DNA from: a candidate division WWE3 bacterium
GTDB taxonomy: Bacteria > Patescibacteriota > WWE3 > 2-01-FULL-39-13
DNA length: 64,000 nucleotides
Reading direction: 5' to 3'
NCBI GenBank assembly: GCA_027002375.1
Contig: JALWZX010000011.1
Location: 18,317 to 82,316, forward strand
The position numbers and the translations under genes were made by a program. The notes beneath the pieces were generated by a model. The model was not told the DNA's origin. It worked only from the letters and a program-made list of their open reading frames with translations, and ran no database searches. Every line of letters begins with the position of its first letter. Positions within the stretch are counted from its first letter, which is position 1. Below are positions 27,165 to 51,225 of this stretch, piece by piece.

Positions 27165-27257
27165 AAAGCCCGTAGTTTCTTATCGCCAATTACCATATTA
27201 ACTAACCCTATCCACACACTAAAGTGTATGAATTTAAGTTTGGTGACAATAAGGCTA
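27165..27257 (+). repeat. MITE-like interspersed repeat, copy 1 (hairpin + TTATCGCCAAT ... AAGTTTGGTGACAATAA)
   Basis: Shares the ~90-bp consensus ...TTTCTTATCGCTAATTATTATATTGACTAACTCCATCCACACATTAAAGTGCGTATTTTTAAGTTTGGCGATAATAAA with 5 other loci. Confidence 0.6.
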
Positions 27258-28352
27258 GCACTAATATTGGCTGTTCTTACTTTACTAATTTTATTGTTTC
27301 CGTTAAAAACACAGGCAAAAGATTTGATAATTAAGAATCAACTAGAAAGCGAAAATGCATACATACAAGATAATACACAAAATACACAACAACCTGTGTT
27401 TAGAAAGCCAACAATTGATTCCCACAATGATTTCACAGACAAAACCCTTTCTAACCCACAAGTTAAAGGAAAAGCAGTTTTATCAACAATAGCGATTGGC
27501 GTATCGCCTGCCATAGCTGAACTTCCCGTAGACCCTGTGAAAACTAAAGTTGCGAAAGTATATGTTTTTAACAATACCAATGTGCCACTACCAATACATG
27601 CTTTTTCTGATAATTTTTCTGTAAACGAAATTGTAATAGACAGTACAAAAGACAATTCAAACACTTTCGATGCTTCAAATTGGATAACAATAGACCCACC
27701 TGACTTTATACTTCAACCAAACGAAGAAAAAGAGGTCTATATCTCAATTTCGCCTACACCAAATGCAGAACCAGGTGGGCATTATGCCACCGTTTACTTT
27801 AGACCCTTAATCTCAGAAGAATATATAACCCCAGATAAAACCTACTTAACTGCACAAATTGGTGTATTATTGTTCTTAACTGTTTCAGGAAAAATCAAAG
27901 AATCTGCAAATATTTCTAACTTAACTTTACCTAAATACCCTACGCCAGATAACTTTTTACCAACAGTTTACATACAAAACAACGGAAACATACATATAAT
28001 TCCCAAAGGTAAAATAACAATCAAGGGCTTGTTTAGAAAAACAACACATGAATTCCCAATAGAAAATTCAATAGTTCTACCAAATACAGAAAAAAAGGTG
28101 GTTTCGCATACCAAGGCTTCATTAAAGACGGGACTATATCGAACATATTTTACAGGCAATTATGGTAGCAACAACAAGCCACTGGCCAGTAGCGACAAGA
28201 TATTCTTCGTATTCCCAAACCACAAGACACTTATTACTATATTTATTCTAATAATAGTTACACTTTTAGTTCAAAAGTTTCATAGAAACATACCATTGGC
28301 TATAAAAGTCTTGTTTGGTAAAATTGATGAATACAAAAGTGGCAGGAACTAA
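27228..28352 (+). CDS. CscA/DUF916-like cell-surface protein (signal peptide + C-terminal TM anchor), paralog 1
   Basis: Signal peptide MNLSLVTIRLALILAVLTLLILLFPLKTQA. Conserved core with paralog 29827-30915 (PTPNAEPGGHYATVYF vs PPTNAEPGGHFGSIVF). C-terminal TM LITIFILIIVTLLV plus basic tail. The ORF-track start at 27054 is extended through a repeat element and is probably artefactual. Confidence 0.55.
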   Translation: MNLSLVTIRLALILAVLTLLILLFPLKTQAKDLIIKNQLESENAYIQDNTQNTQQPVFRKPTIDSHNDFTDKTLSNPQVKGKAVLSTIAIGVSPAIAELPVDPVKTKVAKVYVFNNTNVPLPIHAFSDNFSVNEIVIDSTKDNSNTFDASNWITIDPPDFILQPNEEKEVYISISPTPNAEPGGHYATVYFRPLISEEYITPDKTYLTAQIGVLLFLTVSGKIKESANISNLTLPKYPTPDNFLPTVYIQNNGNIHIIPKGKITIKGLFRKTTHEFPIENSIVLPNTEKKVVSHTKASLKTGLYRTYFTGNYGSNNKPLASSDKIFFVFPNHKTLITIFILIIVTLLVQKFHRNIPLAIKVLFGKIDEYKSGRN

Positions 28353-28361
28353 TTTTGGTTA

Positions 28362-29477
28362 TTGCCACTTTTGTGTTTTTTAGTAATCAAAAAGGAGGTG
28401 ACTAGTACACAAATGAAAAACAAAAAATTATTTAAAGTTTTTTCTATGTTATCAGTTACTGCGCTCACGCTTTCACAGGTGGCACTTTCCCTGTCTATGC
28501 CAACTGCTCAAGCAGCATCACTGTCTGACGGCTCTGTTTCGCTTAGCGATTCACGACCCAGTCAAACCAATGTTACCTATACATCTTCATTTCAAAATGT
28601 TTCGGCAACATCAATTCAATGTATAGAATTAAACTTTAACACTGTAGCAAGTGGCACAGGTTCAGTACCAACAGGAATGTCTACTACTAGTGCGACATTA
28701 AATAGTTCATCAACATACATAACTCCAGCCAACTGGACTGTTGATGCAACAACCAATGGTACTGTTAAACTAACCTACGCAACTGGCGAAAGTGGAACAG
28801 ACGGTAATATCATATTAGATGGAATCACAAATGGTTCAACGGTAGACACAGGGTATTTCTTGCGATTTACAACATATAGTGATTCTAGCTGTACTACAGC
28901 TGTAGACAACGCAACTATAATGTTCATCTATACTAACGGGCAACTCGTTTCGTTAACGGTAGACCCAACATTGAGCTTTAGCGTTGCTTCAGTAGCCTCA
29001 GGTCAAACAGTCAACGGTGCAACAACAAATGTTGCTACATCAACAACAACAATACCTTTTGGAACAGTAACAACAAGTACAGATGTAGTCGCCGCACACG
29101 ATTTAACCGTCACAACAAATGCAACCAATGGTTATACCTTATATACAAGATATACGGGACAATTAACCAATGGATCAGGTGCAACAATTGATGATGTATC
29201 AGGTACAAACGCAACACCAGCATCTTTTGATACGGGCGAAGCCTTTGGTTATACTACAAACGATGCAACATTAAGTAGTGCACCAGTAGACAGATTTACA
29301 TCTAGCGGTGGTAATAAATGGGCTTCTTTCACAACATCAAATGCAGAAGTCGCATACGCCGATTCAGCAGTAGATACAGACACAACAAGAGTTGGTTACC
29401 AAGTAGGCATAGCCGGAACAACAGAAGCTGGAACCTACACAACAACTGTTGTATATACTGCAACACCTACCTATTAA
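28362..29477 (+). CDS. secreted protein with C-terminal WxL-like (YxL variant) domain
   Basis: Signal peptide ending AQA. C-terminal ~170 aa (LSFSV...IPFGTV...HDLTVTTNATNGYTLY...GTYTTTVVYTATPTY) are collinear with the C-terminus of the 2741-aa protein. The layout matches the WxL domain with Trp replaced by Tyr. Confidence 0.55.
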   Translation: MPLLCFLVIKKEVTSTQMKNKKLFKVFSMLSVTALTLSQVALSLSMPTAQAASLSDGSVSLSDSRPSQTNVTYTSSFQNVSATSIQCIELNFNTVASGTGSVPTGMSTTSATLNSSSTYITPANWTVDATTNGTVKLTYATGESGTDGNIILDGITNGSTVDTGYFLRFTTYSDSSCTTAVDNATIMFIYTNGQLVSLTVDPTLSFSVASVASGQTVNGATTNVATSTTTIPFGTVTTSTDVVAAHDLTVTTNATNGYTLYTRYTGQLTNGSGATIDDVSGTNATPASFDTGEAFGYTTNDATLSSAPVDRFTSSGGNKWASFTTSNAEVAYADSAVDTDTTRVGYQVGIAGTTEAGTYTTTVVYTATPTY

Positions 29478-29526
29478 AAATAATGTAAATGTAGAAAATC
29501 CTTATCTTGAATTAAAGATAAAAAAT

Positions 29527-29560
29527 AGAAGCCCCGGGCATACGCCCGGGGCTTCTTAGA
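29527..29560 (+). terminator. rho-independent terminator (GAAGCCCCGGGC-atac-GCCCGGGGCTTC + T-rich tail)
   Basis: Perfect 12-bp GC-rich stem 50 nt after the stop of ORF 28362-29477. Confidence 0.7.
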
Positions 29561-29826
29561 TAAAACATTCATCATTACCAAATTAAACACCTCCATTCCA
29601 AAACGAAATTCTATGATTCTTCTCGCTCATATCCTTCAACACGAAATACCAGCACCACTTTCAGACCCACCCTCTAAAACGAAGTGCCCCACCACCACTC
29701 GACATCAATTTCAAAACGAGACGTTTTTCACATTTACTTCTCTTTTTCCTACCCTATTGCTACAAAATTTAATTTGTGTAAAATCAAATTACAGTAAAAA
29801 ATATAAATCAAATTATAAATAACCAA

Positions 29827-30915
29827 ATGGCATACAAAACAGTTCCTACCCCAAAGATTAAAACATTTAGTAAGTTAACATTAACTTTAGTACTTTCTAT
29901 TACTATACTTTTGGCGTTAAGTTCCCATTCATTAGCACAAGAAGACACCAACACTCAAGAGCACAAACCAACGCCAGAGCTTATAAACGAAAAGCCATCT
30001 ACCAAAAATGACACAAACACTAACCAAAATAACAATCAAAAAACAGATACTCCTACGGAAGATACGGTCACAGACTCTACCACCATAGCCGTATCGCCAC
30101 CAACATTCGAGTTGGTAACAAACCCAGGCACACAAATCAAAAACACAATAAAAGTTAGTAACCCATCAGACAAGCCTATACATGTAACAACAGACATCAG
30201 AAACTTTGTGGCAGTCGGTGAAGAAGGCGCGGTAAACTTGACAGATGAAGACACAACTTATTCCCTAGCAAAATGGATAACAATAGCACCAACAAATGCA
30301 ACAATAAAACCAAAATCAACAGAAATTTTCACGTTCATAATCAACCCCCCTACGAATGCAGAACCAGGTGGCCATTTTGGCTCAATAGTATTTAGAACTG
30401 GGGGAAATCAAATCAATGAAACTGGTGCCTCAGTTGCACAAGAAGTTGCATCATTAATATTACTAAAGATAGCAGGACCTACTACAGAAAAAGCAACTCT
30501 AGAAGAATTCAAAACAACAGACTCAGTATACCAATCGATACCAATAACCTTTGAATATAAGGTAAGAAACGAAGGTAACGTTCACATTAAACCAACAGGA
30601 AAAATAACCATAACTAACATATTTGGCAAAGAAGTTGATTCATTTGCAGTTCCACCAAAAAATGTATTACCAAGTGCAACTAGAAAAACAGACGTAAATT
30701 ACGATAAAAAAGATTTGTTTGGTAAATACAATGCTACACTGGTATTAACCTATGGTGCAAACAATGAAACATTAGTTTCAAACACAATCTTTACAGTAAT
30801 TCCTGTTAAAAAGGTTGCTGTAGCACTTATAATAACTGCAATAGTCTTGTTCTTACTACTAAAAGGCCGTAAAAGAATATCGATGTCTCTAAAAGTACTA
30901 TTTGGAAAACAATAG
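29827..30915 (+). CDS. CscA/DUF916-like cell-surface protein (signal peptide + C-terminal TM anchor), paralog 2
   Basis: Signal peptide ...SSHSLAQ. Core shared with 27228-28352. C-terminal TM VAVALIITAIVLFLLL plus KGRKR. Confidence 0.55.
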   Translation: MAYKTVPTPKIKTFSKLTLTLVLSITILLALSSHSLAQEDTNTQEHKPTPELINEKPSTKNDTNTNQNNNQKTDTPTEDTVTDSTTIAVSPPTFELVTNPGTQIKNTIKVSNPSDKPIHVTTDIRNFVAVGEEGAVNLTDEDTTYSLAKWITIAPTNATIKPKSTEIFTFIINPPTNAEPGGHFGSIVFRTGGNQINETGASVAQEVASLILLKIAGPTTEKATLEEFKTTDSVYQSIPITFEYKVRNEGNVHIKPTGKITITNIFGKEVDSFAVPPKNVLPSATRKTDVNYDKKDLFGKYNATLVLTYGANNETLVSNTIFTVIPVKKVAVALIITAIVLFLLLKGRKRISMSLKVLFGKQ

Positions 30916-32239
30916 TGAAATGACCCATAAAGAACTCTATGAAATTCGCCGGGTTAAGGCCTGTGGCTTCTCATCGCTAATTATTATGTTGACCAACTCT
31001 ATCCAAGCACTAAAGTACGTGGTTTTAAGTTTGTCGATAATAAACACATTTTTATTATCTGTATTATTCACTACATCATTTTTGCTAACTTTATTTAGCA
31101 CTTTAATCACGATTTCTCCCACATCTATACACGCCCAAACACCAATAACAGTTTCATTAGACATATCAGACACAATATTAAGAATTCAAGGCTATGCGAG
31201 TCCGTATGCAAACATAACATTTATAGAAAATGAAGCAGTTATAGGCACTACTCAGGCAAATGTTTATGGGGAATTCAACAAAAATATTACATACGAAAGT
31301 GAAGGTATACACACTGTTTCATTTTATTCTACAGATCAAAACTCAAGCACATCGAGTACAATTACAATAACAGTTGCTGTATACACGCATGCCGTTACAA
31401 CCATTGAAGACATATTAATTCCACCAACGATAGATATAGATAACCCTATTCATACAACTAATTCAGAAGAAATTATCACTTTTAGTGGTCAAGCGACACC
31501 AAATACAACAATAACATTAATATCTGGGGGGCTATCGAAACAAACACAAACTCTAGTAACAGGCAACTGGAAAATTACATTTACAGGTGATCAGTTCACA
31601 ATCGGAACTCACACAGCAATTACCAAAACACAAAAGTTAAATGGCACATTAAGCGAAAATTCAAAAACTATTACTTTCAAGATTAACGAATACATCCCAC
31701 CTGAACCTGAACCAACACCTATACCTACCCCAGAAGAAACTACAGAAACATCAAAAAGCAAAAGTGATGAGACTAAGGGAAATGACGACGAAGACAAAAA
31801 AGAAGACAATACTGAGAACAAAGATACAAATATAGTTAGCAAAATCATAACTAAGATAAATGAAATAATTAACGGTAATGGCAATTCTGAGATTGAATAT
31901 TCATGCAATCTACACCCTTACTTAAAAAACTTTGACTATAATGGAAATTGTTTCATACCACATCGAACAGAAGAATTCGTAAACACTGTAACATACTGGA
32001 CTAAAAACTGGCGTGAAACAACAACCGCCATAAAGGGCTTCTTCGCAAACATTAATGCAGGTGAAAATTTAGACAACCTATCACCAAACGAAAAGCAAAA
32101 ATTAGAAAAAGAGATTAAACGATGTGACCTTGACAACGACAATTTATGCACACTTAAAGACTTTTCGATACTATTATATTATACTAATAACATCGAAGTT
32201 ACAGTTCAAACTGACAAAAGTCAGGATATAAGAAATTAG
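30902..32239 (+). CDS. surface protein with Ig-like N-terminal region, P/T/E/D-rich linker and C-terminal Cys-containing domain
   Basis: Hydrophobic leader. The start may be the internal Met near 30986; the 5' end lies inside a repeat element. Ig-like TIDIDNPIHTTNSEEIITFSGQATPNTTITLISGG. Linker PEPEPTPIPTPEETTE. Four-Cys C-terminal domain. Confidence 0.5.
   Translation: MENNSEMTHKELYEIRRVKACGFSSLIIMLTNSIQALKYVVLSLSIINTFLLSVLFTTSFLLTLFSTLITISPTSIHAQTPITVSLDISDTILRIQGYASPYANITFIENEAVIGTTQANVYGEFNKNITYESEGIHTVSFYSTDQNSSTSSTITITVAVYTHAVTTIEDILIPPTIDIDNPIHTTNSEEIITFSGQATPNTTITLISGGLSKQTQTLVTGNWKITFTGDQFTIGTHTAITKTQKLNGTLSENSKTITFKINEYIPPEPEPTPIPTPEETTETSKSKSDETKGNDDEDKKEDNTENKDTNIVSKIITKINEIINGNGNSEIEYSCNLHPYLKNFDYNGNCFIPHRTEEFVNTVTYWTKNWRETTTAIKGFFANINAGENLDNLSPNEKQKLEKEIKRCDLDNDNLCTLKDFSILLYYTNNIEVTVQTDKSQDIRN
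30947..31047 (+). repeat. MITE-like interspersed repeat, copy 2
   Basis: GGCTTCTCATCGCTAATTATTATGTTGACCAACTCTATCCAAGCACTAAAGTACGTGGTTTTAAGTTTGTCGATAATAAA. Confidence 0.6.
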
Positions 32240-32246
32240 TGGAACA

Positions 32247-32278
32247 CCGACAGCTTATGCAGTCGGCATTTTGCGTTT
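32247..32278 (+). terminator. terminator-like hairpin (CCGACAGC-ttat-GCAGTCGG) + TTTTG
   Basis: Located 8 nt after the stop of 30902-32239. The same hairpin plus T-run is repeated after groEL at 60634. Confidence 0.55.
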
Positions 32279-32337
32279 ATCTCGCCAAAGCTGGTTAGGC
32301 TACGCAAAACAATCTCATCTGATTGTTTACACAATCA
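32247..32337 (+). repeat. terminator-associated structured element B, copy 1 (~90 nt, three hairpins)
   Basis: CCGACAGCTTATGCAGTCGGCATTTTGCGTTTATCTCGCCAAAGCTGG...TACGCAAAACAATCTCATCTGATTGTTTACACAATCA. Confidence 0.55.
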
Positions 32338-32364
32338 TGTTGAAGTTATGAATAGTAAAATATA

Positions 32365-33504: not shown

Positions 33505-33587
33505 GCAGTTTGCGCTGTATTAAATGTGTACGCAAAATCTACAGCACTAGCGCCTTCTCTATTCTCACAACATGCTCTCTACCTTAA

Positions 33588-33680
33588 AGATAAAACTCCA
33601 CTGGATAATGCCCGCGGTTTCGCATCGCTAATTATTATATTGGCTAACTCCAACCACGCGCTAGTTTGGGAAACTCAGAA
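33588..33680 (+). repeat. MITE-like interspersed repeat, copy 3 (3' end divergent)
   Basis: GGTTTCGCATCGCTAATTATTATATTGGCTAACTCCAACCACGCGCTAGTTTGGGAAACTC. Explains the spurious ORF 33526-33717. Confidence 0.5.
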
Positions 33681-36600
33681 AATTTTTGTATCCTTCTCAT
33701 CTTTATATATCACATAATACAAAACTGGTATAAAAAGAAGCATAACAGTACCTGAAAATAGCAGTCCAGAAATAATAGCTCCACCTAAACCTCTCCAAAC
33801 TGGGTCAGAAATAGTTATGGGAATCAACCCCATTAATGTAGTTAATGAGCTTAATGCAATTGGCTCTAGCCTGCTTGCCGATGCATCAGAAATTGCTTCT
33901 TTTAGTTTCATGCCAGCAAACTCATTTTGCTTAATTTTCTCTACCAACATTATAGAATTGTTAACAACAATTCCAAACAAAGCCAATAAACCAATCAACG
34001 CAGGAAACGACAAAGGCGTGCCAGTTAAAGCAAATATAACAAACACTCCTGAGATCGCCAAGGGTATTACCATAAAAACAATAAAAGATTTTCTAAATGA
34101 TCCTAATTGAATAACCATTGTAATTATTATCAAGATCGCAGATATTATCATTGCTTCTATTATAGATTTAACAGACTTCTTATTCTCTTCATTTGCTCCA
34201 CCTGTTTTCCAAGTGTAGCCTTTTTCTAGTCCTAGTTCGGTAGAAGCATATTTTTCTACTTGTTTATTCAATGTAGGTGCAGAATACCCATCTGCCACAG
34301 AAGCTGTAACATACACTACCCTTTCGCCGTCTTCATGTGTTATATCAAATGGGTTTTCTTTTAACGTAATAACACCGAGAGATGATATTGGCATATATCC
34401 GCTTTTGGTTGGAATATAAATTCTATCTATATCTTCTGGTGTTTGAACATCAGTAGACGTTTTTAACACTATATCTTCATCATCAATGTAAACTGTATCA
34501 ATTGTTCCTAAATTAAAACCACTTGCAAAAGTTCTCAACCAAAACCCTACTTCTTTATTTGTTAATCCTAATTCACGCAATTTAGCTTCATTTGGCACGA
34601 AAGTTATCTTTCCTAAAGACGATTTGGCAGATTTTTCGGCATCATAAACACCTTGCATCATATTCATATAATTGACCAACTTATCAGCATAGCTATTAAC
34701 CTTATCTAAATCATCACCCAAAACCCTAATCTCTAAATCTGCGCCAACAGGTGGTCCACCAGAAATTTCTTTAACAGCAATATCACCAGCCGAAAAATCT
34801 GCCAACTTACCACGAAACGTTTCTGCTATCTCAAATGATGTTTCACCTCTCATATCACTATCTACGAGTTTCACAGAAATCAAAGCCTCATTAGATGACC
34901 CACCCCCGACAGACAGCATCGACTCAGCAAAAACCTTACCTACTTCAACAACCATATATTTTCCAACCTTTTTATACTCGGGCATACTCCTTAATTCGTT
35001 AGCCACTTTAAATGCACTTTCTCTAGTAATATCTAACTTTGTTCCAGATGGCATGGTTAATTGCACATATACAACGTCTTCATCTTTTTTGGGAAATAAT
35101 TCGTTCTCAACAAATCCCATCGGCACGAGTAAATACGAAAACAACGAGAACCCTAACACAACAACTAGCACCGTAACCCACGACTTTTTATTATTTAATA
35201 TCTTTTCAATAAACACTTTGTAATATTGGGAAATACCACCCAAATCTATAAACCCAACGGATATTTTATGTGAAATCCAACCAAGATATTTGTTCTTTTC
35301 AAGTCTATTAGTAAAATTTCGTAAAACAGTCACTATATCGCTACTACCATAGTCGTTTGAATTTGCATTAATATTTTTATCATCTTTAGAGTTGGCTTTT
35401 GAATTCATGTCAGAACTGCCTGAATCACCAGAGTTAACCCTTGAATTCTCCCTGTTAAAATTCGTGTCTTTCTTGATAAACAACCTAAACACAGCAACAA
35501 GCAAAATGTAAACCAAAAGAACAAATGGCAACATAATGCTTTTACCGACGAAAATACCAAGTAGAATTCCAATAAATAAAATAATCGAACTGTAAGCAAA
35601 CAACTTAACCCTGTCAGGCAATCGTGGCTTTAGAAAAATAATCATCAATGGTAGCGTAACAAGCACTGCAACGCTTGTTGATGCTAATAAAGTAGTAGAC
35701 ACGACAATGGGAATCGATTTTATAAATGACCCAATTACTCCTGTTGACAACAGCAAAGGTAAAAATGCCCACACAGTAGTTAATGTAGTTGTCCAAATTG
35801 GAACTATAAAATCACGCCAAACCAATGCACCTGTTTGCCTTTCATCAAACTTTCCTGTTCTGTGGTACCTTGTCATCGCAGAAACAATAACAATCGCATC
35901 GTCAACAACCAAACCAAGAGCCAACAACAACGAAAACATCGTCAAAAAGTTTAATGACAACCCAGCAAATTTCATAACAGCAAAAGCAATCAAGAATGTT
36001 AACGGAATACTAAATGAAGCTACACTGGCCTGTCGAATTCCCAGAAATACAACTAAAACAATAAATACTAATAAGAGAGTCATAATAAAATTACTGGACA
36101 ATGTGTCGAATTGATCTGCTATTAAATTCGCCGAATTATCAATGTCTGCAACTGTAAAACTACCATCGTATTCTGCTAGAGTAGAGTCGACAACCTCTTT
36201 AATATCATAATAAGTATCTTCAACCGGCTGATTTATTCTTTTATAAACACTAAAACTAACGGCACGACTAGCCTCGCCATTTTCTCCTATAACATATGTC
36301 GCCGTAATTTGATCTTTTGGCGCTTCAACAACATCTGCCACATCAGACAGAACAACTTGCGCAGGCGTACTAGGCATTGGCGATTCAGCAACTTCAATAG
36401 AATTAGCCGGGTCAACAACTCTTTGTGTAGCTCCTAAATCTAAAACCATATTTCTAATGTCATCGACACTAACAATGGTAGAATCTAGTGTTACCGAAAA
36501 GGAATTTCTACCAGTCTCTACACTACCAGCTGGATAACTTTTTAATTGGGAATCAATCAAAGATGCAAGTTGAGCCGGGTTCAAATTGTATTGTTGCAAT

Positions 36601-37229
36601 TTCTCTAAATCTACAACAATCTGAACCTCTAAAACTTCTTCACCATTAAGCTCCACCCTATCAACTTTTGGTAAATTCTCAATTTCATCAGACAAATTAC
36701 TAACCAATGTCATAAGAGACGCATCATCTTTATCAGTCAAAAGCGCAAATGTCCAAATAGGCACATCTTCAAAATCAATCCGCATGACCTTTGAATCTAA
36801 AGCGTCATCAGGCAGGTTATTAACAGAATCAACCGCTTGCTGAACATCTGTAACGGCTTTATCAGGGTCAAACTTAGATTCAAACTGTACTTTTATAATA
36901 GATAAATTTTCTTTTGATGTGGAACTCACACTTTCGATTCCATCTATAGACAGAATTTCTTTTTCAAGCGAGTTTGTAAGAAGAGTTTCAACATCTTCAG
37001 GGCCAGCACCAGGTAAAACTGTTGTAACAATAACAATAGGAATCTTAATTTCAGGCATAAAACGCCTAGAAAGTTCTTTATAGCTATAAATTCCCAATAT
37101 TAAGATACTTAAAATAAGCAAAATTACAAATCTAATATTCGTTATATATTTATAGAAAAACTTCTTTTCTAGTCCTGAATCATATCTTAATTGTTGTAAA
37201 TATTTAGAATCACTATCATTTCTTTTCAT
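33675..37229 (-). CDS. RND-superfamily efflux transporter permease (AcrB/MMPL-like) with inserted low-complexity loop
   Basis: AcrB-type N-terminus (IPIVIVTTVLPGAGPEDVE...). 12-TM two-repeat architecture. N/S/D-rich ~70-aa insertion. Confidence 0.8.
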   Translation of the reverse strand: MKRNDSDSKYLQQLRYDSGLEKKFFYKYITNIRFVILLILSILILGIYSYKELSRRFMPEIKIPIVIVTTVLPGAGPEDVETLLTNSLEKEILSIDGIESVSSTSKENLSIIKVQFESKFDPDKAVTDVQQAVDSVNNLPDDALDSKVMRIDFEDVPIWTFALLTDKDDASLMTLVSNLSDEIENLPKVDRVELNGEEVLEVQIVVDLEKLQQYNLNPAQLASLIDSQLKSYPAGSVETGRNSFSVTLDSTIVSVDDIRNMVLDLGATQRVVDPANSIEVAESPMPSTPAQVVLSDVADVVEAPKDQITATYVIGENGEASRAVSFSVYKRINQPVEDTYYDIKEVVDSTLAEYDGSFTVADIDNSANLIADQFDTLSSNFIMTLLLVFIVLVVFLGIRQASVASFSIPLTFLIAFAVMKFAGLSLNFLTMFSLLLALGLVVDDAIVIVSAMTRYHRTGKFDERQTGALVWRDFIVPIWTTTLTTVWAFLPLLLSTGVIGSFIKSIPIVVSTTLLASTSVAVLVTLPLMIIFLKPRLPDRVKLFAYSSIILFIGILLGIFVGKSIMLPFVLLVYILLVAVFRLFIKKDTNFNRENSRVNSGDSGSSDMNSKANSKDDKNINANSNDYGSSDIVTVLRNFTNRLEKNKYLGWISHKISVGFIDLGGISQYYKVFIEKILNNKKSWVTVLVVVLGFSLFSYLLVPMGFVENELFPKKDEDVVYVQLTMPSGTKLDITRESAFKVANELRSMPEYKKVGKYMVVEVGKVFAESMLSVGGGSSNEALISVKLVDSDMRGETSFEIAETFRGKLADFSAGDIAVKEISGGPPVGADLEIRVLGDDLDKVNSYADKLVNYMNMMQGVYDAEKSAKSSLGKITFVPNEAKLRELGLTNKEVGFWLRTFASGFNLGTIDTVYIDDEDIVLKTSTDVQTPEDIDRIYIPTKSGYMPISSLGVITLKENPFDITHEDGERVVYVTASVADGYSAPTLNKQVEKYASTELGLEKGYTWKTGGANEENKKSVKSIIEAMIISAILIIITMVIQLGSFRKSFIVFMVIPLAISGVFVIFALTGTPLSFPALIGLLALFGIVVNNSIMLVEKIKQNEFAGMKLKEAISDASASRLEPIALSSLTTLMGLIPITISDPVWRGLGGAIISGLLFSGTVMLLFIPVLYYVIYKDEKDTKIF

Positions 37230-38710: not shown

Positions 38711-38796
38711 ATCTAATGAAATATAGCGTAATCGGATAACAATAGCAATATTACTTAAATCATAATCATACAAATTAAACTCCTCGAGCTGAAACC

Positions 38797-38868
38797 CGTT
38801 AGTTTTATCGCTAATTATGGCTAACTCCATTTACGCATTAAAGTGCGGGTTATGAGATTGGCGACAAT
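38797..38868 (+). repeat. MITE-like interspersed repeat, copy 4 (short form)
   Basis: TTATCGCTAATTATGGCTAACTCCATTTACGCATTAAAGTGCGGGTTATGAGATTGGCGACAATAAT. Lies between two minus-strand genes. Confidence 0.55.
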
Positions 38869-41114
38869 AATTTGTTTATCTCATCAATCCCATAAACATA
38901 TAATCGATTTATCGCTCTAGTTGAAAAAACAAATAATCTTTTAGCAGAAATTGGGTTATTTGGATATAATTCTTTATTTGCATCTAATATAAAAACACTA
39001 TTAAATTCTAGCCCTTTTACCAAATCCCCAGGAACCAAGAATACACCATTATTACTAAATTCATCAAAAAACCTATCTACAAATACCAGGTCAAATTTAG
39101 CATCTTTATCTAACTTTTTACCTAAAGATTTTTCTGCATCTGCAAATTTCTTTGCCAACTTCTCAAATGTATCTTTTGCATTTTCACTATTAGGTTCTAT
39201 TATTCCAACAGCACGAAAGTCGCCGGCAAGTCGCATATTCACAACCTCTTTTACAACACTGTCTAACATTTCATCGTTATTATTAAATGTAGAAACCACA
39301 GGTTCGCTACCATGTCTATCAAATGGTTCAGGTAAATATGTAAAATCAGAAAACTTCTCTAGAATGCCCTTAGCAAATGTTATTATTTCTTTTGTTGTTC
39401 TGTAACTTATCTTAATATTGTAGTAATCAATATCATTTGAATCCCAAATATATTCTAAGTCTTGCCACGATTTCAAACTGCCATTGTCTTCTGTAGCTTG
39501 GTTTAAATCCCCCAAAATTGTGAATCCGTTTCCACGCACAAATGTATCTATCACTAAATAATTTAACAAACCTAAATCTTGAGCCTCGTCTACTATCACA
39601 TGCTTAAAACTTTTGTATGGCACTACGCCCCGCAATTTATACGCTATATAATAAACTGCCGATATATCATCAACACTCAATTGATTTTTGTTAAATTTTA
39701 TTTCAAAAGTATTTGGTACATAAGTAGACCGTAAGAATTCCCCATAAAACTTAATTGGGTCAAAAAGATTCAAAATCTTAGTTAATCGCCCAACAACAGA
39801 ATTTATACCCCTTAAACGACCCAATACAGCAGTATTACCCTGCTTATATTCTTCTGAATGGGCATCTGCGTCATCAGAATACGCATCGATCATATCAGAA
39901 ATTATGTCGTACGGCGCACGTATATCATATCTTGTAAAATATCTGTTCATTGAAAGATCGTTATATTGTGGAATTCTATCGATTTCCTTTTTTATGTAAT
40001 TCTTTTTATACTCGACAAATCTCTTTAACCCCTCTATAAACTCTATTGAATTCTTTTGTTTGCTATATTCATCTTTATGATTAAACGTTCTGCGAGAATC
40101 TATTTCGTAACCGAATCCCTTTAAAGACTTACGAATAAAACTTGTAAGCGTATTTCTGGCCAATGAGTAAATTTCTAGCTCAGGTAATGTTTGTGCCACA
40201 TAATTAACCAAAACCTTAGACGAAGACAGTAAAAGTGTATTATGTTCTGTTAAATAATCTTTGTATGTGTAAAAGAGATAAGACATTCGATGTATGGCTA
40301 CGGTTGTTTTTCCAGAGCCGGCGGTGCCTTGAACTACACAAATTCTAAACGGGTCTGATCTAATTATCTCATCTTGTTCTTTTTGAATGGTTCTGACAAT
40401 ATCTTCTAAGGCACCGCCGGCCTTTTTATTCAATTCACTAGACAGCAAGTCAATTCTTAAACTGTTATCGTAAATCGCAAGTAAATTATCATGCGAAACT
40501 TCTATATTTCGCCTCAATTGTAGTGCACCTTGAACTGTTCTATGCTCTTTTACCCACGGCTTACCCTCCACATCAACAGGAAAATCGTAAAATGCTTCTT
40601 TAGTAGGCTCTGTATAATTATAATATAGTGAAGCAATAGGTGAACGCCAATCCATAACCTGATATTCGCCATCTTTATGGTAGAAAGCATGTTTGCCTAT
40701 ATATAGAGACATAGTTTGACTTCCACCAAAAGTTTGCATACTGAAATTCGACTTCTCATTATCGCTTCTGTTAGCACTAACCCCAGTAGGCAAAAAATCA
40801 ATACGTGCAAAATATACCCTTTGCAATTGACCCTCTAATCTTTCAACAAATAATTTTAGAAACTGGTAACTTCGGGCTTCGAAGGTGTAATTAAGAGATT
40901 TTATCAAATCAACAGCGTCATCTTGCTTACCTTCTTTTGCAGCCTCTTTTAGGCCTTCTGCATAAAACTGTTCGAGTTTTTTTACTCTTCCACTATAAAC
41001 AGTATATTCCTGCCTTACTCTATTATATGTTTCTTTAAGATGATTTTCTTCTAACTTATATATATCGCCGTCCTCACCGCTATTCTTTTTTTTATTACGG
41101 GGAACTCTAGACAT
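38850..41114 (-). CDS. UvrD/HelD-family superfamily-1 DNA helicase
   Basis: Walker A VVQGTAGSGKTTVAIHR. UvrD-like C-terminal motifs (VFVDRFFDE...GLEFNSVFILD...LFVFSTRAINRLYVYG). ~750 aa with N-terminal coiled coil, as in helicase IV. Confidence 0.7.
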   Translation of the reverse strand: MSRVPRNKKKNSGEDGDIYKLEENHLKETYNRVRQEYTVYSGRVKKLEQFYAEGLKEAAKEGKQDDAVDLIKSLNYTFEARSYQFLKLFVERLEGQLQRVYFARIDFLPTGVSANRSDNEKSNFSMQTFGGSQTMSLYIGKHAFYHKDGEYQVMDWRSPIASLYYNYTEPTKEAFYDFPVDVEGKPWVKEHRTVQGALQLRRNIEVSHDNLLAIYDNSLRIDLLSSELNKKAGGALEDIVRTIQKEQDEIIRSDPFRICVVQGTAGSGKTTVAIHRMSYLFYTYKDYLTEHNTLLLSSSKVLVNYVAQTLPELEIYSLARNTLTSFIRKSLKGFGYEIDSRRTFNHKDEYSKQKNSIEFIEGLKRFVEYKKNYIKKEIDRIPQYNDLSMNRYFTRYDIRAPYDIISDMIDAYSDDADAHSEEYKQGNTAVLGRLRGINSVVGRLTKILNLFDPIKFYGEFLRSTYVPNTFEIKFNKNQLSVDDISAVYYIAYKLRGVVPYKSFKHVIVDEAQDLGLLNYLVIDTFVRGNGFTILGDLNQATEDNGSLKSWQDLEYIWDSNDIDYYNIKISYRTTKEIITFAKGILEKFSDFTYLPEPFDRHGSEPVVSTFNNNDEMLDSVVKEVVNMRLAGDFRAVGIIEPNSENAKDTFEKLAKKFADAEKSLGKKLDKDAKFDLVFVDRFFDEFSNNGVFLVPGDLVKGLEFNSVFILDANKELYPNNPISAKRLFVFSTRAINRLYVYGIDEINKLLSPIS

Positions 41115-42035: not shown

Positions 42036-42089
42036 TGCTACATCACCAGCCTCGGTTAATTCACACGCCGAAGGTGAAACCGAATTATC

Positions 42090-44144
42090 TCAAGTGTATC
42101 CTTTTTCAACTTCACACAAAGAAGAACATCCATCAGAATTTGACAAATTACCATCATCACACAGTTCACCTTCGTCTATAACACCATTGCCACATAAACT
42201 TTCTTCAATACCACCATTATTCGTATCATTACCACCTATCCCATCATCGTTTCCATCACTGTTTTCATCGTCATTTTCATCATCGTCGTTAAGTGTAGCC
42301 ATTTCATCATCTGACATTTCGTTAACAGAAATAGATTTCACAGTCGCTACGGTTTTTGACTTTGTGGTTAAAACATATAACTCATCAGGTACAAAATCGT
42401 CAGTCGTTTCCAAATAATCTGACTTATTTGGTTCAAATATCTTAGACTGGTTACTCAACGAATCTTTCAAAATAACCTGAACGCCTCCACTTTCTATATC
42501 AGCATCAAAACGAACCTCGTAATACTTATTTTCTGCCAACAAAATGTCTTGATATATACCACTACCCTGTCTTTCACTTTCTATCTTCTGAAAACCATTG
42601 CCAGCTTCATAATGTCTATACGACACATTAGCATCCGTAAACTTAGGATACACCTGCCATCCTTTAGCTATCGTGCCGAAGTCACATGGCTCAGCATTAT
42701 CACCTGTAGTCTCATCTGCAACTGCACATACACGATATTTTATCGTAAAGTTGGGTCTCAAATCTTCTTTTGAATCATACGAATAGATAATCTGTGAACC
42801 ATCCGTACCATTACCCTTAGCTTCAAGTATCATTCCGTTATTGTCTTCTGGGTTACTTGTCCAATCTATTGTCAAAAACCTCAAATCTGCTTCATACTTA
42901 CCTGTATTGTTCACATCATTTAACACAGACGCAATCCCGTTTACGTCATTATCACCATTTGCACCAGGCACTTCCCACTTTTCAGAAGAATTTACATCAA
43001 TCCATGTAACATCCTTAATACTATCGTGCCAGTTTTTAGAGACACCCATAAATCTATAAACATTATCGACATCTCCAGAATTTTTAACATTAAAAGTGAA
43101 TGTAGCACTATCTATAATTGCATTACGGGGAATTTCAGCGAGATCCCAATAAAACAATGGCTTGTCAACGTTTGCCCCAACCATCAATTCTTCTTTGTCA
43201 CTAAAATTTTTGTCGTTTGACGAACCGCTTATATACGTATCGTTCCCACGAAAAGTTTTCTCACCTTTTTCGCATACAACGTGAACAGGCTTCAAATCAC
43301 CGCTTAAATCTTCTTCTATTCCATCGTCATCACCACTATCATCTATATTATCACTATCTTCATCGCCCGTATTATCTGTATCATCATTAGCATCTCCATT
43401 ATCGATCCCGTCAGAATCTGAACTATCTTCTTTATATTCGACAGATAATGTTGGTTCCTTTTCACCATTCTCAGAAGACCAAAATGTATAATCCTTATCA
43501 ACAGCATCTGTAACAAGCAAAACACCATAGTTACCATTACTTATTTGCTCGCTAACGATATCCGTAATATCAACTAATGTTGTATTTCCGTCTTTATATA
43601 TATAACCTTCTCCATGTGCTGTATTTAAAAACTCATTAACCAATTCGTTCCCGCTAATTGGCGGTAAGGGCCCACTGATTGCACCAACAGGATTAAACTT
43701 TTCGCCATCATACGTTCCAAGCAATTTTATAATCTCTTGTACATCTTGTTTTTTACTGTTCCACGATTCATCGAGCATGAAAGCGTAAATTTTGTTGGTT
43801 TCCTTATCAAAATTTTCAGTCGGCATTAACCTAACAGTAGCCTTCAAAATAGTTTTGTTAGAATCTAAATTTGCTAAATCAAACTTAATATACGAGACAG
43901 TCTCGCCACGCTTAAAATGAAGCATGTTATCTGTATATTCAGAACCATCTTTTGCATAGCTCTCATCCTCACTAGCCAGAATGCTCAAGCTATCAGTACC
44001 CAACACAGCCTTTTTATAACTATCAGACACCTCAGCATGTATAGTGCCAATGTTGTAAAAAGAATATAAGCCTACGATAAGCACAAAGGATAAAATTCCT
44101 GATAATGAAGTTTTAATGTTTTTTAAAAGTCTTTTTCTGGGCAT
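42090..44144 (-). CDS. secreted surface protein with two DNRLRE-like modules, poly-acidic linkers and C-terminal Myxococcus-type cysteine-rich repeat
   Basis: Signal peptide ...IGTIHA. DNRLRE-like motifs (VSYIKFDLANLDSNKTILKATVRLM; LFYWDLAEIPRNAIIDSATFTFNV). D/E/G-rich runs. Terminal CGNGVIDEGELCDDGNLSNSDGCSSLC. Confidence 0.6.
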   Translation of the reverse strand: MPRKRLLKNIKTSLSGILSFVLIVGLYSFYNIGTIHAEVSDSYKKAVLGTDSLSILASEDESYAKDGSEYTDNMLHFKRGETVSYIKFDLANLDSNKTILKATVRLMPTENFDKETNKIYAFMLDESWNSKKQDVQEIIKLLGTYDGEKFNPVGAISGPLPPISGNELVNEFLNTAHGEGYIYKDGNTTLVDITDIVSEQISNGNYGVLLVTDAVDKDYTFWSSENGEKEPTLSVEYKEDSSDSDGIDNGDANDDTDNTGDEDSDNIDDSGDDDGIEEDLSGDLKPVHVVCEKGEKTFRGNDTYISGSSNDKNFSDKEELMVGANVDKPLFYWDLAEIPRNAIIDSATFTFNVKNSGDVDNVYRFMGVSKNWHDSIKDVTWIDVNSSEKWEVPGANGDNDVNGIASVLNDVNNTGKYEADLRFLTIDWTSNPEDNNGMILEAKGNGTDGSQIIYSYDSKEDLRPNFTIKYRVCAVADETTGDNAEPCDFGTIAKGWQVYPKFTDANVSYRHYEAGNGFQKIESERQGSGIYQDILLAENKYYEVRFDADIESGGVQVILKDSLSNQSKIFEPNKSDYLETTDDFVPDELYVLTTKSKTVATVKSISVNEMSDDEMATLNDDDENDDENSDGNDDGIGGNDTNNGGIEESLCGNGVIDEGELCDDGNLSNSDGCSSLCEVEKGYT

Positions 44145-44410: not shown

Positions 44411-44546
44411 TTTATAAGTTTGGCGATAATGAAACCACGGGCTTCAGCCCGTGGTTTCTTATCAGCAATTACTCTATATTGACTAACTCCATCCACACAT
44501 TAAAGCGCGTATTTTTAAGTTTGGCGATAATAAATTTAAAATATAG
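44411..44546 (+). repeat. MITE-like interspersed repeat, copy 5, with extra flanking 3'-end unit (AAGTTTGGCGATAAT present at both ends)
   Basis: AAGTTTGGCGATAATGAAA-CCACGGGCTTCAGCCCGTGG-TTTCTTATCAGCAATTACTCTATATTGACTAACTCCATCCACACATTAAAGCGCGTATTTTTAAGTTTGGCGATAATAAA. Confidence 0.6.
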
Positions 44547-44573
44547 TAAACCATTCTTGATTGACATATTAGT

Positions 44574-45893: not shown

Positions 45894-45965
45894 AAAGATC
45901 AAAATACTGATCAATGAATGAGTCAAAATACAAACGAATGATTTCTAAATTAATACGAATTTAGA

Positions 45966-46003
45966 AAAAAAGGGGTGGCATTTCATGCCACCCCTTTTTC
46001 GTT
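45966..46003. terminator. bidirectional rho-independent terminator (AAAAAGGGGTGGCAT-ttc-ATGCCACCCCTTTTT)
   Basis: Perfect 13-bp stem with an A-tract 5' and a T-tract 3'. Lies between 44574-45893 and 46095-47591. Confidence 0.75.
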
Positions 46004-46094
46004 TTCGTCAAGCGATAGCAACTGTGCACAGCGATCGCAATGGAAATACTTAAACTTCCTCTACAAACAGCAAGCGCAATACAATATTTAAACC

Positions 46095-47591: not shown

Positions 47592-47624
47592 CAAGAAGAG
47601 CCTACAGGGTTTTATGAAAAATAA

Positions 47625-48631: not shown

Positions 48632-48726
48632 AGGCAGAATTCCTTATATAACAAAATTGCTTATATAATAATTATAGTACAAAAGTAATAAACATCAAAC
48701 TATTTTTCAAATTACTGGCAATGCGG

Positions 48727-50034: not shown

Positions 50035-50246
50035 ATATAATTAGAAACTAACATTTTATACAATTGTATACAAGATTGTACATAAATTTTATGTGGAACT
50101 CAACGCTCGTATTGCGTCTTACGACTTTAAATATTAAAGAACATTTGTTTTCTTACGTCAAAAGACATAGCAACTAAACGTGCTCACAATGTAGACTTTT
50201 CAAATCTTCTAATATACAATAAGCTCAAGATTGGCACATTAATTAT

Positions 50247-50322
50247 GGTGAGGTAGCCAAGGTGGTCACGGCACCGGTCTGAAAAACCGGCTATGTGAGT
50301 TCGACTCTCACCCTCACCACCA
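50247..50322 (+). tRNA. tRNA-Phe (anticodon GAA)
   Basis: Manual cloverleaf. Acceptor GGTGAGG/CCTCACC. Anticodon stem CCGGT/ACCGG with loop CTGAAAA. T-arm GTGAG-TTCGACT-CTCAC. Encoded ACCA 3' end. Confidence 0.85.
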
Positions 50323-50446
50323 CATGAGATTAGCGAGCGAGAAATCATTGATATTAAATTATACTTAATCGTAATCTCATACCTGTTCCTACGCTTAAAC
50401 TTTAGGCGTAGAGTCAATAATATTCACAAGGGGGTGAACATTACAA

Positions 50447-50932
50447 ATGCCAGCACAACCAACTTTATACGCAGATCCTTATGCAAATTCTTACGCAGCT
50501 GATGCCGCAACAACTGCTGCAACAGGCGCATTCTTCGGAATATACATGCTTTTTTGGCTTGCAATCGCAGTATTAATGCTAATTGCTCAAATAAAGGTAT
50601 TTTCGAAAGCAGGAAGAAAATGGTGGGAAGCTTTAATTCCCTTTTACAACATATATGTATTATTAGAAATAGTACAAAGACCCGGATGGTGGTTAATATT
50701 ATTTTTTGTTCCATTCGTAAACTTCGTGGTAATGATAATCTTATTAAACGATCTATCAAAAGCTTTCGGTCACGGTGTCGGTTTCACCTTAGGTTTATTA
50801 TTTTTAGGCCCAATATTTTGGTTAATATTAGGTTTCAATAAAGACAAGTATGTTTTAGCTAAAGCTTCAACATCACAAAAACCGGTAGCAGAAACGGATG
50901 TTAAGCAAGAAACTGTACAAAAGGCAGAATAA
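50447..50932 (+). CDS. small multi-TM protein, DUF5684-like
   Basis: Strong SD (AAGGGGGTG) 8 nt upstream. Motifs KAGRKWWEALIPFYN, RPGWWLILFFVPFVNFVV, FGHGVGFTLGLLFL. Confidence 0.55.
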   Translation: MPAQPTLYADPYANSYAADAATTAATGAFFGIYMLFWLAIAVLMLIAQIKVFSKAGRKWWEALIPFYNIYVLLEIVQRPGWWLILFFVPFVNFVVMIILLNDLSKAFGHGVGFTLGLLFLGPIFWLILGFNKDKYVLAKASTSQKPVAETDVKQETVQKAE

Positions 50933-50961
50933 ATAATTCTACCGAAACATTTGTATGCGAC

Positions 50962-50992
50962 AGTCGCGGGCTTATGCCCGCGACTTTTTGTT
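50962..50992 (+). terminator. rho-independent terminator (AGTCGCGGGC-ttat-GCCCGCGACT + TTTTTG)
   Basis: 10-bp GC stem plus T-run 30 nt after the stop of 50447-50932. Confidence 0.75.
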
Positions 50993-51023
50993 AGAAAAGT
51001 CACAAACTAAAATTTTGTAATTT

Positions 51024-51225
51024 TTATCGCTAATTATTATATTAATCCGAACATAAAACCCGCGACTTTAGTCGCGTGGGTGAAGTTTAGTCAATCGCAT
51101 AATGTAATTATGCGACTATTTTCTAATGTAAGCCACGTACTTTAGTGTGTGGCAGTTCACTGAGCAATTCCACTCACACGCTAAAGTGCGTAATTTTAAG
51201 TTTGGGGGAATTAAAGTACTCTAGA
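51024..51225 (+). repeat. MITE-like interspersed repeat, copy 6 (composite/long form, ~200 bp)
   Basis: Starts TTTTTATCGCTAATTATTATATTAATCC..., contains the hairpin CCCGCGAC-ttta-GTCGCGTGGG, and ends ...CACACGCTAAAGTGCGTAATTTTAAGTTTGGGGGAATTAAAG. Confidence 0.55.

Follow-up and report, generated by a model that had tools for sequence, protein, structure and literature searches.

A hairpin-rich family of ~105-nt interspersed repeats in a CPR/Microgenomates-like bacterium

Repeat copies and their genomic setting

The window (the whole 64-kb stretch of DNA analysed, from an uncultured, CPR/Microgenomates-like bacterium of groundwater) contains a genuine family of hairpin-rich interspersed repeats of ~105 bases. 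Searches with nhmmer recovered six related copies at ~27.2, 31.0, 33.6, 38.8, 44.5 and 51.1 kb, where a preliminary description of this DNA had placed them, with scores well past chance (43–99 bits; E values of 3 × 10−12 to 1 × 10−29). All six full copies lie on the plus strand, spaced 2.6–7.8 kb apart, in intergenic DNA and overlapping gene ends, as had been described, and inspection of their flanks showed these to be unrelated to one another. Further pieces comprise a nested inverted variant (51.0–51.2 kb), a solo tail of 20 nt (44.41 kb) and two relics, at 18.5 and 29.5 kb (Table 1). All pieces in the window are confined to 18.5–51.2 kb, and no copy was found in the remaining ~38 kb of contiguous sequence scanned (the rest of the window and ~7 kb to its left on contig L021). 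One intact copy (111 bits) lies between an AI-2E transporter gene and tRNA-Trp on a second contig from the same metagenome (L024, 3.9 kb), bringing the sequence of the organism covered to ~75 kb.

Table 1 Copies and fragments of the repeat in the window
Feature	Coordinates	Strand	Details
27-kb copy	27150..27254	+	105 nt = 35 codons; nhmmer 94 bits; hairpins degraded; fold z = −2.0
31-kb copy	30941..31045	+	105 nt = 35 codons; nhmmer 99.5 bits; fold z = −0.2
33.6-kb copy	33592..33670	+	3′ part missing/deleted; nhmmer 68 bits, model positions 2–79
38.8-kb copy	38776..38875	+	8-nt internal deletion; antisense to neighbours; nhmmer 76 bits
Solo tail	44411..44430	+	TTTATAAGTTTGGCGATAAT; directly abuts 5′ end of 44.5-kb copy
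44.5-kb copy	44431..44538	+	Intergenic, divergent genes; nhmmer 93 bits; fold −24.7 kcal/mol, z = −3.3
51-kb copy (host of nested variant)	51024..51219	+	nhmmer 43 bits (51160–51217); E = 0.008 (50965–51045)
Nested inverted variant	51044..51160	−	Inside 51-kb copy; fold −34.0 kcal/mol, z = −4.4
Degenerate relic	29527..29608	+	nhmmer E = 0.004; fold −29.1 kcal/mol, z = −6.6
Central-part fragment	18540..18582	−	ATCGCTAATTATTATGT...AACTCAATTCATGCG; upstream of giant gene; nhmmer E = 0.004

In the closest syntenic relative (L018), the eight genes stand in the same order and AcrB is 74% identical to that of the window, but no orthologous junction carries a copy of the repeat, the junctions being much shorter; the gap that holds the 33.6-kb copy, between a cohesin-domain gene (stop at 33504) and a convergent AcrB-like gene (stop at 33675), measures 170 nt in the window and 8 nt in L018. 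Given this shared gene order and AcrB identity, the absence of copies from L018 indicates that the window copies are lineage-specific insertions, with mobility deduced from comparison with this single, fairly distant genome. Strains were not seen to differ in the presence or absence of copies. Unrelated flanks, the lack of copies in L018, the nesting at 51 kb and the copy on a second contig together argue against two readings that the preliminary description had raised against itself, namely a segmental duplication with identical flanks and confinement to a single contig.

Several pieces could be related to neighbouring genes or to other copies. The 38.8-kb copy provides the final 7 codons and the stop of a UvrD-like gene (38850..41114, minus strand), the conserved core of whose product stops at about residue 743 of 754. 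Relative to HlyD, this copy is upstream of the true start (~38710, from alignment of the N-terminus with L018). At 44.4 kb, the 3′ unit does stand on both sides, as previously claimed, the solo tail being 19/20 identical to the 3′ tail of the adjoining copy (~44512–44531). The 51-kb copy begins with TTATCGCTAATTATTATATT (51024–51043, 20/20 identical to the 33.6-kb copy) and resumes at 51161–51219, beyond the nested element that splits it; its displaced first hairpin may be the terminator hairpin found at 50962–50985. The nested variant consists of a hairpin CCACACAC-TAAA-GTACGTGG, an extra central hairpin, a hairpin CCACGCGAC-TAAA-GTCGCGGG and a tail TTTTATGTTCGG, with a minus-strand match to the hairpin motif (51133–51152, 1 mismatch), and the 18.5-kb fragment is identical to the 31-kb copy at 17/17 positions.

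Window copies are 67–77% identical pairwise and 74–85% identical to the L024 copy, a star-like pattern that points to decay from a common founder, whose sequence L024 appears to preserve best. Together, these results make it probable that the copies are small, non-autonomous, formerly mobile interspersed repeats of ~105 nt, specific to this CPR/Microgenomates-like lineage, which decayed after insertion.

Anatomy of the element and loss of its fold

The element holds a 20-nt hairpin, CCACGnnC-TAAA-GnnCGTGG, twice in direct orientation. The first hairpin, at the 5′ end, is followed by TTTC/T-rich sequence and resembles an intrinsic terminator, in agreement with the GC hairpin and T-run described previously; it is clamped by GAAAC/GTTTC in the founder-like L024 copy, is conserved in 6 of 7 copies and forms a perfect 12-bp stem in the 44.5-kb copy. 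A scan with the hairpin motif CCACGnnCTAAAGnnCGTGG returned four sites at ≤2 mismatches (0.13 expected). The second hairpin is enclosed by the arms of a 10-bp inverted repeat (TTATCGCCAA/TTGGCGATAA); the preliminary description was right that these arms exist and wrong that they form both ends, as the first hairpin stands outside the left arm, which lies ~30 nt into the element. The literal 74-nt string said to be shared among copies has no match even at 3 mismatches and is a mosaic consensus.

Features of the insertion sites bear on how such an element may have moved. No consistent target-site duplication or direct repeat flanks the copies, the empty sites of L018 being too diverged for base-level comparison, and no transposase, recombinase, integrase, Y1_Tnp, RAYT or TnpB domain was detected in the window ORFs tested. 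A tentative refinement of the mechanism, itself rather unlikely and in no conflict with formerly mobile repeats, is a single-strand HUH/Y1 element, that is, an IS200/IS605-derived PATE or a REP/RAYT-type unit, in which the two subterminal hairpins would be transposase binding sites and the element would integrate 3′ of a short target, with no duplication and in a replication-biased orientation. The direct hairpins near both ends are consistent with this, as is the lack of evident terminal inverted repeats or target duplications. One copy adjoins the ...GATAAT tail end of another (the element ends ..AAT AAA), and the left flank ends in AT in 5 of 6 copies, but this AT target was defined post hoc in an AT-rich genome. 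Similarly, the six full copies share the plus strand in a region of uniformly negative GC skew, but with the nested variant and the 18.5-kb fragment included the orientation bias is weak (6–7 plus versus 2 minus, small numbers). The HUH/Y1 domains named above are absent from the window, and an inverted repeat around the second hairpin is foreign to IS200/IS605 ends. REP/BIME/REPIN elements are mobilised by RAYTs (IS200/IS605-type Y1 transposases), and the present element shares with them a 20-nt, GC-rich imperfect palindrome as its repeated unit, the lack of any clear target-site duplication and a possible strand bias; however, REPINs are inverted doublets, whereas the palindromes here are direct and set in ~65 nt of conserved non-palindromic sequence, with no RAYT gene in the window.

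The founder-like L024 copy folds at −36.8 kcal/mol (z = −5.4), whereas most window copies fold no better than shuffled sequence (z = −0.1 to −2.0). Compensatory changes had been reported for the internal hairpin, but in the six-copy alignment only 1 of 153 cells carried a compensatory double change, no better than shuffles, and 79.7% of cells paired, compared with 81.2% in shuffles; substitutions disrupt pairs rather than compensate. Loss of the fold in most copies and the lack of covariation weigh against the proposal, which we consider very unlikely, that the repeat is not mobile but a cis-regulatory module maintained by selection (a terminator–promoter cassette, a 5′ leader or a small RNA). 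The terminator-like first hairpin would suit such a role, as would a promoter-like match within the element (TTGACY-16-TAAAGT) and the location of several copies just downstream (29.5 kb, 33.6 kb and L024) or upstream (44.5 and 51.2 kb) of plus-strand genes. Promoter and terminator scans, however, showed no enrichment over shuffles, element sequences drew no Rfam match at the gathering score, nor any meaningful one at E ≤ 10, orthologous junctions of L018 lack the module throughout, and two copies sit in ORFs, one is antisense between minus-strand genes and one is nested. Also in favour of a regulatory role is the 29.5-kb relic, which retains a perfect 13-bp hairpin like the first one of the element, followed by TTCTTAG and located 50 nt past the stop codon of gene 28362..29477, but is otherwise decayed. 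This hairpin, 24/28 identical outside the loop to the first hairpin of the 44.5-kb copy, probably serves as the terminator of that gene; L018 carries a different terminator hairpin at this position.

Copies within surface-protein genes

Within ORF 27054..28352, the 27-kb copy follows codon 32 and immediately precedes a signal/anchor hydrophobic segment. The ATG at 27054 abuts the stop of the giant gene, likewise in L018 (TAATG), residues T7, Q10 and K11 are conserved, and the N-terminus minus 35 residues leaves 60 residues before NQLESE in both genomes. The 31-kb copy occupies the signal-peptide n-region of a gene starting at ATG 30920 (MTHKELY, the repeat, then NTFLLSV...), for which public gene calls give a 439-residue product (P0124); the start context (stop, 4–6 nt, ATGAC) is conserved with L018, and four homologues (P0125–P0128) have ordinary short signal peptides without an insert. 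Only one plus-strand frame of the element is stop-free. With lengths of exactly 35 codons, an open frame and conserved starts upstream, both copies are most likely true in-frame insertions, not mere ORF-calling artefacts, and the insert would be translated in both products. Against this, internal ATG/GTG codons of the repeat could act as new starts.

The earlier view that the repeats inflate gene predictions thus needs dividing: the HlyD extension (38830), the TTG start at 30902 and ORF 33526–33717 look spurious, whereas the in-frame insertions in the genes starting at 27054 and 30920 look genuine. The peptide SLIIMLTNSIQALK, said to be common to these ORFs, is exact in the 31-kb copy only; it has diverged in the 27-kb and 33.6-kb copies, and the 38830 ORF, on the opposite strand, lacks it. 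It is highly improbable that a peptide of ~35 residues (..ILTNSIHTLK.V.LSL..I) is the conserved unit, a coding module common to paralogous surface proteins with intergenic copies as pseudogene remnants, even though one operon has two copies in frame within secreted proteins that look paralogous, and several copies share this open frame. Differences between the 27-kb and 31-kb copies are even over codon positions (8/10/10), indicating that the peptide is not under purifying selection, it is missing from homologues in other genomes, and the majority of copies are intergenic or on the strand opposite to their neighbours; these points largely refute the module, and nucleotide palindromes account for the conservation better than the peptide does. 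A cassette system with the copies as its recombination sites (integron attC-like or of another site-specific recombinase), or segmental duplication, is scarcely credible despite the direct orientation and spacing of full copies, since L018 lacks the sites but shares the gene order and the genes were thus not assembled as cassettes, a tRNA gene and genes of housekeeping type separate copies, the window ORFs tested contain no integrase or recombinase domain, no R″/R′ core-site consensus is visible and the flanks are unrelated.

Relation to known repeats and proposed history

The preliminary label of a MITE-like family is a fair description, given the size (~105 nt, <300 bp), strong structure, lack of a transposase gene, dispersed copies with unrelated flanks and effects on ORF ends, as in classical MITEs (Correia/CREE, ERIC and Nezha). 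It fits less well in that the inverted repeat does not reach the left terminus, no consistent duplication (TA or other) was seen and no cognate transposase or parent insertion sequence was identified in the ~75 kb. SPRITE/BOX/RUP elements of Streptococcus pneumoniae are AT-rich, with a long stem and a U-rich terminator-like tract, lie near gene ends, cluster and insert into each other, and have minimal terminal inverted repeats, no established target-site duplication and no known matching insertion sequence (PMC3049150). The window element resembles these in its small size, AT-richness, terminator-like stem, gene-end placement, clustering and nesting, as well as in its minimal terminal inverted repeats and the lack of a clear target-site duplication or matching insertion sequence; the likeness is one of description rather than sequence homology, in another host phylum, and the duplicated hairpin, internal 10-bp inverted repeat and in-frame intragenic copies set it apart. 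Rickettsia palindromic elements (RPEs) are repeats of ~100–150 nt, found in frame in genes as well as in intergenic DNA as old, diverged copies, with no known transposase (PMC10969869). Here, too, the likeness is in behaviour only and implies no family membership, the phyla being unrelated: both have one open frame, a small reduced genome, similar size, diverged copies and in-frame as well as intergenic insertion, including here two 35-codon copies downstream of starts conserved with L018. In contrast to RPEs, which occur in metabolic enzymes, only 2 of ~10 pieces here are intragenic, in N-terminal signal/anchor regions of secreted proteins, and the terminator-like hairpin is a feature of the window element.

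A degenerate 3′-end pattern that fits 4 of 5 full window copies gave chance matches only in GTDB species genomes, JGI metagenomes and IMG/VR, with no second host lineage among these collections, and no small "selfish" repeat of this kind was found described in the literature for the host lineage. The family is a novel one within the known MITE/REP/SPRITE/RPE-like class of repeats.

For these formerly mobile repeats, we envisage that a trans-acting enzyme encoded elsewhere in the genome recognised the palindromes and either copied the element elsewhere or relocated it, with sites near gene ends and in an accessory, surface-protein-rich region perhaps favoured. After insertion, copies would simply have decayed, those within ORFs surviving only where the 35-codon length and single open plus-strand frame kept the host protein intact, such that two secreted or anchored proteins may have gained ~35 N-terminal residues. 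Retention of only the terminator hairpin at 29.5 kb suggests local exaptation as a terminator. Spread between genes, into another copy and twice in frame into surface-protein genes is ordinary for small bacterial "selfish" repeats; SPRITE/BOX/RUP and RPE offer documented precedents for each of clustering, nesting, terminator-like hairpins and in-frame fusions (PMC3049150, PMC10969869). A bolder reading, which we regard as doubtful, is that of an active or recently active CPR-specific mobile unit, in which an unrecognised enzyme reads the duplicated 20-nt hairpin and the host has repeatedly co-opted the first hairpin as a portable terminator and the open frame as a portable N-terminal extension that remodels cell-surface signal/anchor regions. 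If so, repeats would have driven the evolution of proteins and operons in the genome of an ultra-small episymbiont.

Copies and anatomy of the repeat

Repeat finding and nhmmer recovered, all on the + strand, the six related copies of a ~105-nt hairpin-rich repeat that a preliminary description of the window had reported from the sequence alone (43–99 bits; E values from 3e-12 to 1e-29). The copies are diverged, with pairwise identities of only 67–77%, and the literal 74-nt consensus proposed for them had 0 matches in an exact search, even allowing 3 mismatches. The 3′-tail unit that had also been seen flanking the 44.4-kb copy on its left was confirmed as a 20-nt duplicate (44411–44430, 19/20 identical). 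Profile searching located no copy in the window at 1–18 kb or 52–64 kb, nor does any lie in the adjoining 7 kb on its left side (L021).

Positions of the repeat in the window and on a second contig of the same metagenome
Feature	Sequence	Position	Strand	Remark	Basis
27-kb copy	window	27150-27254	+		repeat finding and profile search
31-kb copy	window	30941-31045	+		repeat finding and profile search
33.6-kb copy	window	33592-33670	+	3′ part absent	repeat finding and profile search
38.8-kb copy	window	38776-38875	+	8-nt deletion inside	repeat finding and profile search
44.5-kb copy	window	44431-44538	+		repeat finding and profile search
51-kb copy	window	51161-51219	+	later part of split copy	repeat finding and profile search
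Probable degenerate copy	window	29527-29608			E = 0.004 (nhmmer)
Repeat fragment	window	18540-18582	-	17/17 identical to 31-kb copy	
Further copy	L024	2341-2447		between AI-2E transporter gene stop and convergent tRNA-Trp	

A peptide-profile match to a 68-aa database protein (P0121/P0122) led to a further copy on L024, a 3.9-kb contig distinct from that of the window but drawn from the same metagenome (JOHN19-1; ENA ERZ23491050; Logan SRR14510437), to which exact protein matches assign the window, its source contig measuring 83 kb. That protein (L024 2339–2545) reads through the repeat and then through the tRNA-Trp in antisense, yielding a GGVGIEPT motif, and is a spurious ORF. The L024 copy is the most consensus-like, being 74–85% identical to each window copy in a star-like pattern, and it displays the full layout: GAAACT, CCACGGGC-TAAA-GCCCGTGG, TTTC, TTATCGCCAA and 22 nt, followed by CCACGCAC-TAAA-GTACGTGG, TTTTAAGT, TTGGCGATAA and TAAAG. 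One 20-nt palindrome is thus present twice per element, both times in the same direction; a T-rich tract after the first gives it a terminator-like appearance, and the second is enclosed by a perfect 10-bp inverted repeat. The copy folds at −36.8 kcal/mol (z = −5.4), and the hairpin motif occurs at 4 window sites, versus 0.13 expected.

Compensatory changes in the internal hairpin, as previously claimed, were unsupported: when the six copies are aligned, pairing holds in 79.7% of cells, compared with 81.2% in column shuffles, and only 1 of the 153 cells carries a double change, with most departures breaking a pair. The fold is largely lost from the copies at 31 kb (z = −0.2), 33.6 kb (z = −0.1), 38.8 kb (z = −1.0) and 27 kb (z = −2.0), good folding being left only at 44.5 kb (z = −3.3), in the nested 51-kb copy (z = −4.4) and on L024. 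The structure is not kept by selection, and the pattern is one of decay from a palindromic founder.

Insertion relative to a syntenic relative

The closest relative retrieved (L018; AcrB 74% identical) shares with the window the gene order HlyD, AcrB, cohesin-domain protein, four surface proteins and a giant protein (2,642 aa in L018), and L018 contains no copy of the repeat. The convergent AcrB/cohesin gap is 8 nt in L018 versus 170 nt in the window, and elsewhere in L018 stops and starts overlap or almost abut. At 29.5 kb, L018 has a different terminator hairpin, whereas the window has ~177 extra nt that open with a perfect 13-bp hairpin of the type of the repeat family. Junction DNA in L018 is too diverged to define empty sites at the base level. 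One block ahead of gene 29827..30915, TTTGTGTAAAATCAAATTA (window 29770–29800; L018 ~8395–8425, −), is conserved amid otherwise unalignable intergenic DNA and probably serves as the promoter of this gene. The window's giant ORF (18826..27051; 2,741 aa) contains Ig_Rha78A_N domains and, at 20758–23568, direct repeats of 300 nt with 71–74% identity (spacings of 2124 and 381 nt); this giant surface protein is composed of repeated modules. The best named relatives of the AcrB-like protein (33675..37229, −) belong to Levybacteria, Daviesbacteria and Roizmanbacteria, which makes the source organism a CPR/Microgenomates-type bacterium. The window has a G+C content of 35%, and every 4-kb bin of 1–64000 shows negative GC skew whatever the gene orientation (AT skew tracks gene strand); all of the window apparently lies on one replichore.

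Copies also interrupt one another. The 51-kb + copy breaks off after 51024–51043 (TTATCGCTAATTATTATATT, identical to the 33.6-kb copy) and resumes at 51161 (TGAGCAATTCC...); the intervening 117-nt segment, read on the minus strand, shares the family's architecture of hairpin, spacer, hairpin and TTTTATGTTCGG tail but has a different central hairpin, and is by its sequence a variant copy nested within another. The flanks of the copies are unrelated and a further copy lies on another contig, in line with the interspersed family that the preliminary description had set against a duplication with identical flanks confined to this region. Together with the absence from L018 and the nesting, these observations argue for past mobility; they speak against segmental duplication as well as against a regulatory motif maintained by conservation. 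On synteny and anatomy, segmental duplication was dropped, as were the integron/attC, DGR and CRISPR readings.

A second, unrelated-looking repeat family of ~125 nt (32237–32362 and 60624–60750, +; ~85% identical) contains three hairpins (CCGACAGC-TTAT-GCAGTCGG then TTTTG; CTCGCTAAAGCGAG; and AAACAATC..GATTGTTT) and has no Rfam match. Its 32-kb copy occupies an intergenic space that measures only 10 nt in L018, and so is also an insertion.

Reading frames through the repeat

All ORFs overlapping the repeat had been taken for artefacts, which proved correct in three cases and wrong for two genes. The true HlyD start is M41 (~38710), which aligns with MNKFFKKITNFIG of L018; the TTG start at 30902 is an artefact, and the 63-aa ORF at 33526–33717 is probably another. 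The 38.8-kb copy, read on the other strand, contributes the final seven codons and the stop codon of a UvrD-like gene, past the conserved core of that gene. Elsewhere, a 323-aa ORF (41446–42417, +) that overlaps an LRR-protein gene (41226–42035, −) is probably a shadow ORF.

The two exceptions appear to carry the repeat within genuine coding sequence. Gene 27054..28352 has its ATG 2 nt past the stop of the giant gene, with TAATG at the same place in L018, and T7, Q10 and K11 are common to both; 60 residues precede the conserved NQLESE motif in L018, compared with 60 + 35 in the window, and the 35 additional codons coincide exactly with the 27-kb copy. Gene 30920..32239 likewise has the same ATGAC start as in L018, 4 nt past the upstream stop, with the repeat directly after codon 7 and again exactly 35 codons long; public gene calls give a 439-aa product (P0124), and four homologues have ordinary signal peptides of 25–40 residues without the insert. 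Both copies lie in the element's sole stop-free + frame, and their differences, counted from the sequences, are evenly spread over codon positions (8/10/10), implying that the peptide itself is not under selection and that an open frame alone is required. From these comparisons, we conclude that the 27-kb and 31-kb copies represent in-frame insertions in the n-region of signal or anchor sequences. The predicted insert-encoded peptides include EIRRVK / ACGFSSLIIMLTNSIQALK and SFLSPITILTNPIHTLK, and the repeat holds internal ATG/GTG codons that are candidate translation starts besides the upstream one.

Distribution, proposed mobilization and significance

Relatives were sought with a degenerate 3′-end pattern that fits 4 of the 5 full window copies; it returned only 4 loci in GTDB species genomes, 11 in JGI metagenomes and 3 in IMG/VR, which are chance matches given that similarity was confined to the pattern span (<11 bits). 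A 5′-half pattern had 0 matches in IMG/VR. The family seems narrowly distributed, with the proviso that diverged relatives could escape such exact-pattern searches. A doubled profile of the repeat-encoded 34-mer found a single protein, P0121, and, having missed the window's own P0124, is unusable as evidence of absence. Rfam yielded only tRNAs and noise (whole window at the gathering score; three repeat regions at E ≤ 10), and promoter and terminator consensus scans gave counts equal to those of shuffles.

Searches of Pfam, NCBIfam and PHROGs revealed no transposase, integrase or recombinase domain in any of the window ORFs covered, all large or unannotated ones among them. Directly downstream of the 51-kb composite, a 404-aa Cys-rich repeat protein (51347–52561, +) with many CxxC motifs showed a weak CxxC-x17-CxxC match and phrog_15341 (unknown function); against PDB it gave zinc-ribbon noise only and no transposase resemblance. 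Type IV secretion/conjugation-type genes (52886–55048, −; 62421–63998, +; L005 5388–6080), comprising a VirD4/TrwB-like coupling ATPase, PrgI-like and TraC-like genes, flank GroEL and two tRNAs, and may form an apparatus for conjugation or competence of the sort typical of CPR.

No consistent target duplication was detected at the window copies; the left flank ends in AT for five of the six, and one copy directly adjoins a solo tail that ends in ...GATAAT. The motifs CCACGnnCTAAAGnnCGTGG and TTATCGCCAA are those to compare with transposase ends or flanking hairpins. We propose that the repeats would be non-autonomous and mobilized in trans by an enzyme recognizing the duplicated palindrome, after which copies would have decayed, the intragenic ones surviving where in frame; the first hairpin may have been locally reused as a terminator, probably at 29.5 kb and possibly on L024 and at 33.6 kb. 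Movement by a single-strand (IS200/IS605- or RAYT-like) mechanism would suit the two identical subterminal hairpins, the absence of inverted repeats at the termini and the prevalence of a single orientation (6–7 versus 2), but these numbers are too small and no such enzyme was seen in the window ORFs, leaving this mechanism improbable.

In behaviour, the repeat resembles the pneumococcal SPRITE, BOX and RUP elements, which combine a terminator-like stem and U-rich tract with proximity to gene ends, clustering and mutual insertion, and for which no target-site duplication or parent insertion sequence is known (PMC3049150). Its in-frame intragenic copies recall Rickettsia palindromic elements, for which such insertions have been described (PMC10969869). 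Unlike MITEs in the strict sense, the element has no inverted repeat at its left terminus, and its copies show no consistent target-site duplication; it is assigned to no named family. Small interspersed palindromic repeats are a well-known phenomenon. The open literature searched yielded no account of such small repeats from CPR/Patescibacteria genomes.

CPR/Patescibacteria genomes, at ~1 Mb, are usually called streamlined, and this family shows that they can carry decaying selfish repeats. Such repeats distort gene calls, the spurious 68-aa protein having already entered public databases, and the annotation of related metagenome-assembled genomes would benefit from an HMM built on the family. 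In two cases, ~35 residues have apparently been added to the N termini of secreted surface proteins, a class thought to mediate host attachment. The family introduces no new principle, and exemplifies how repeats can remodel the N termini of surface proteins in CPR.
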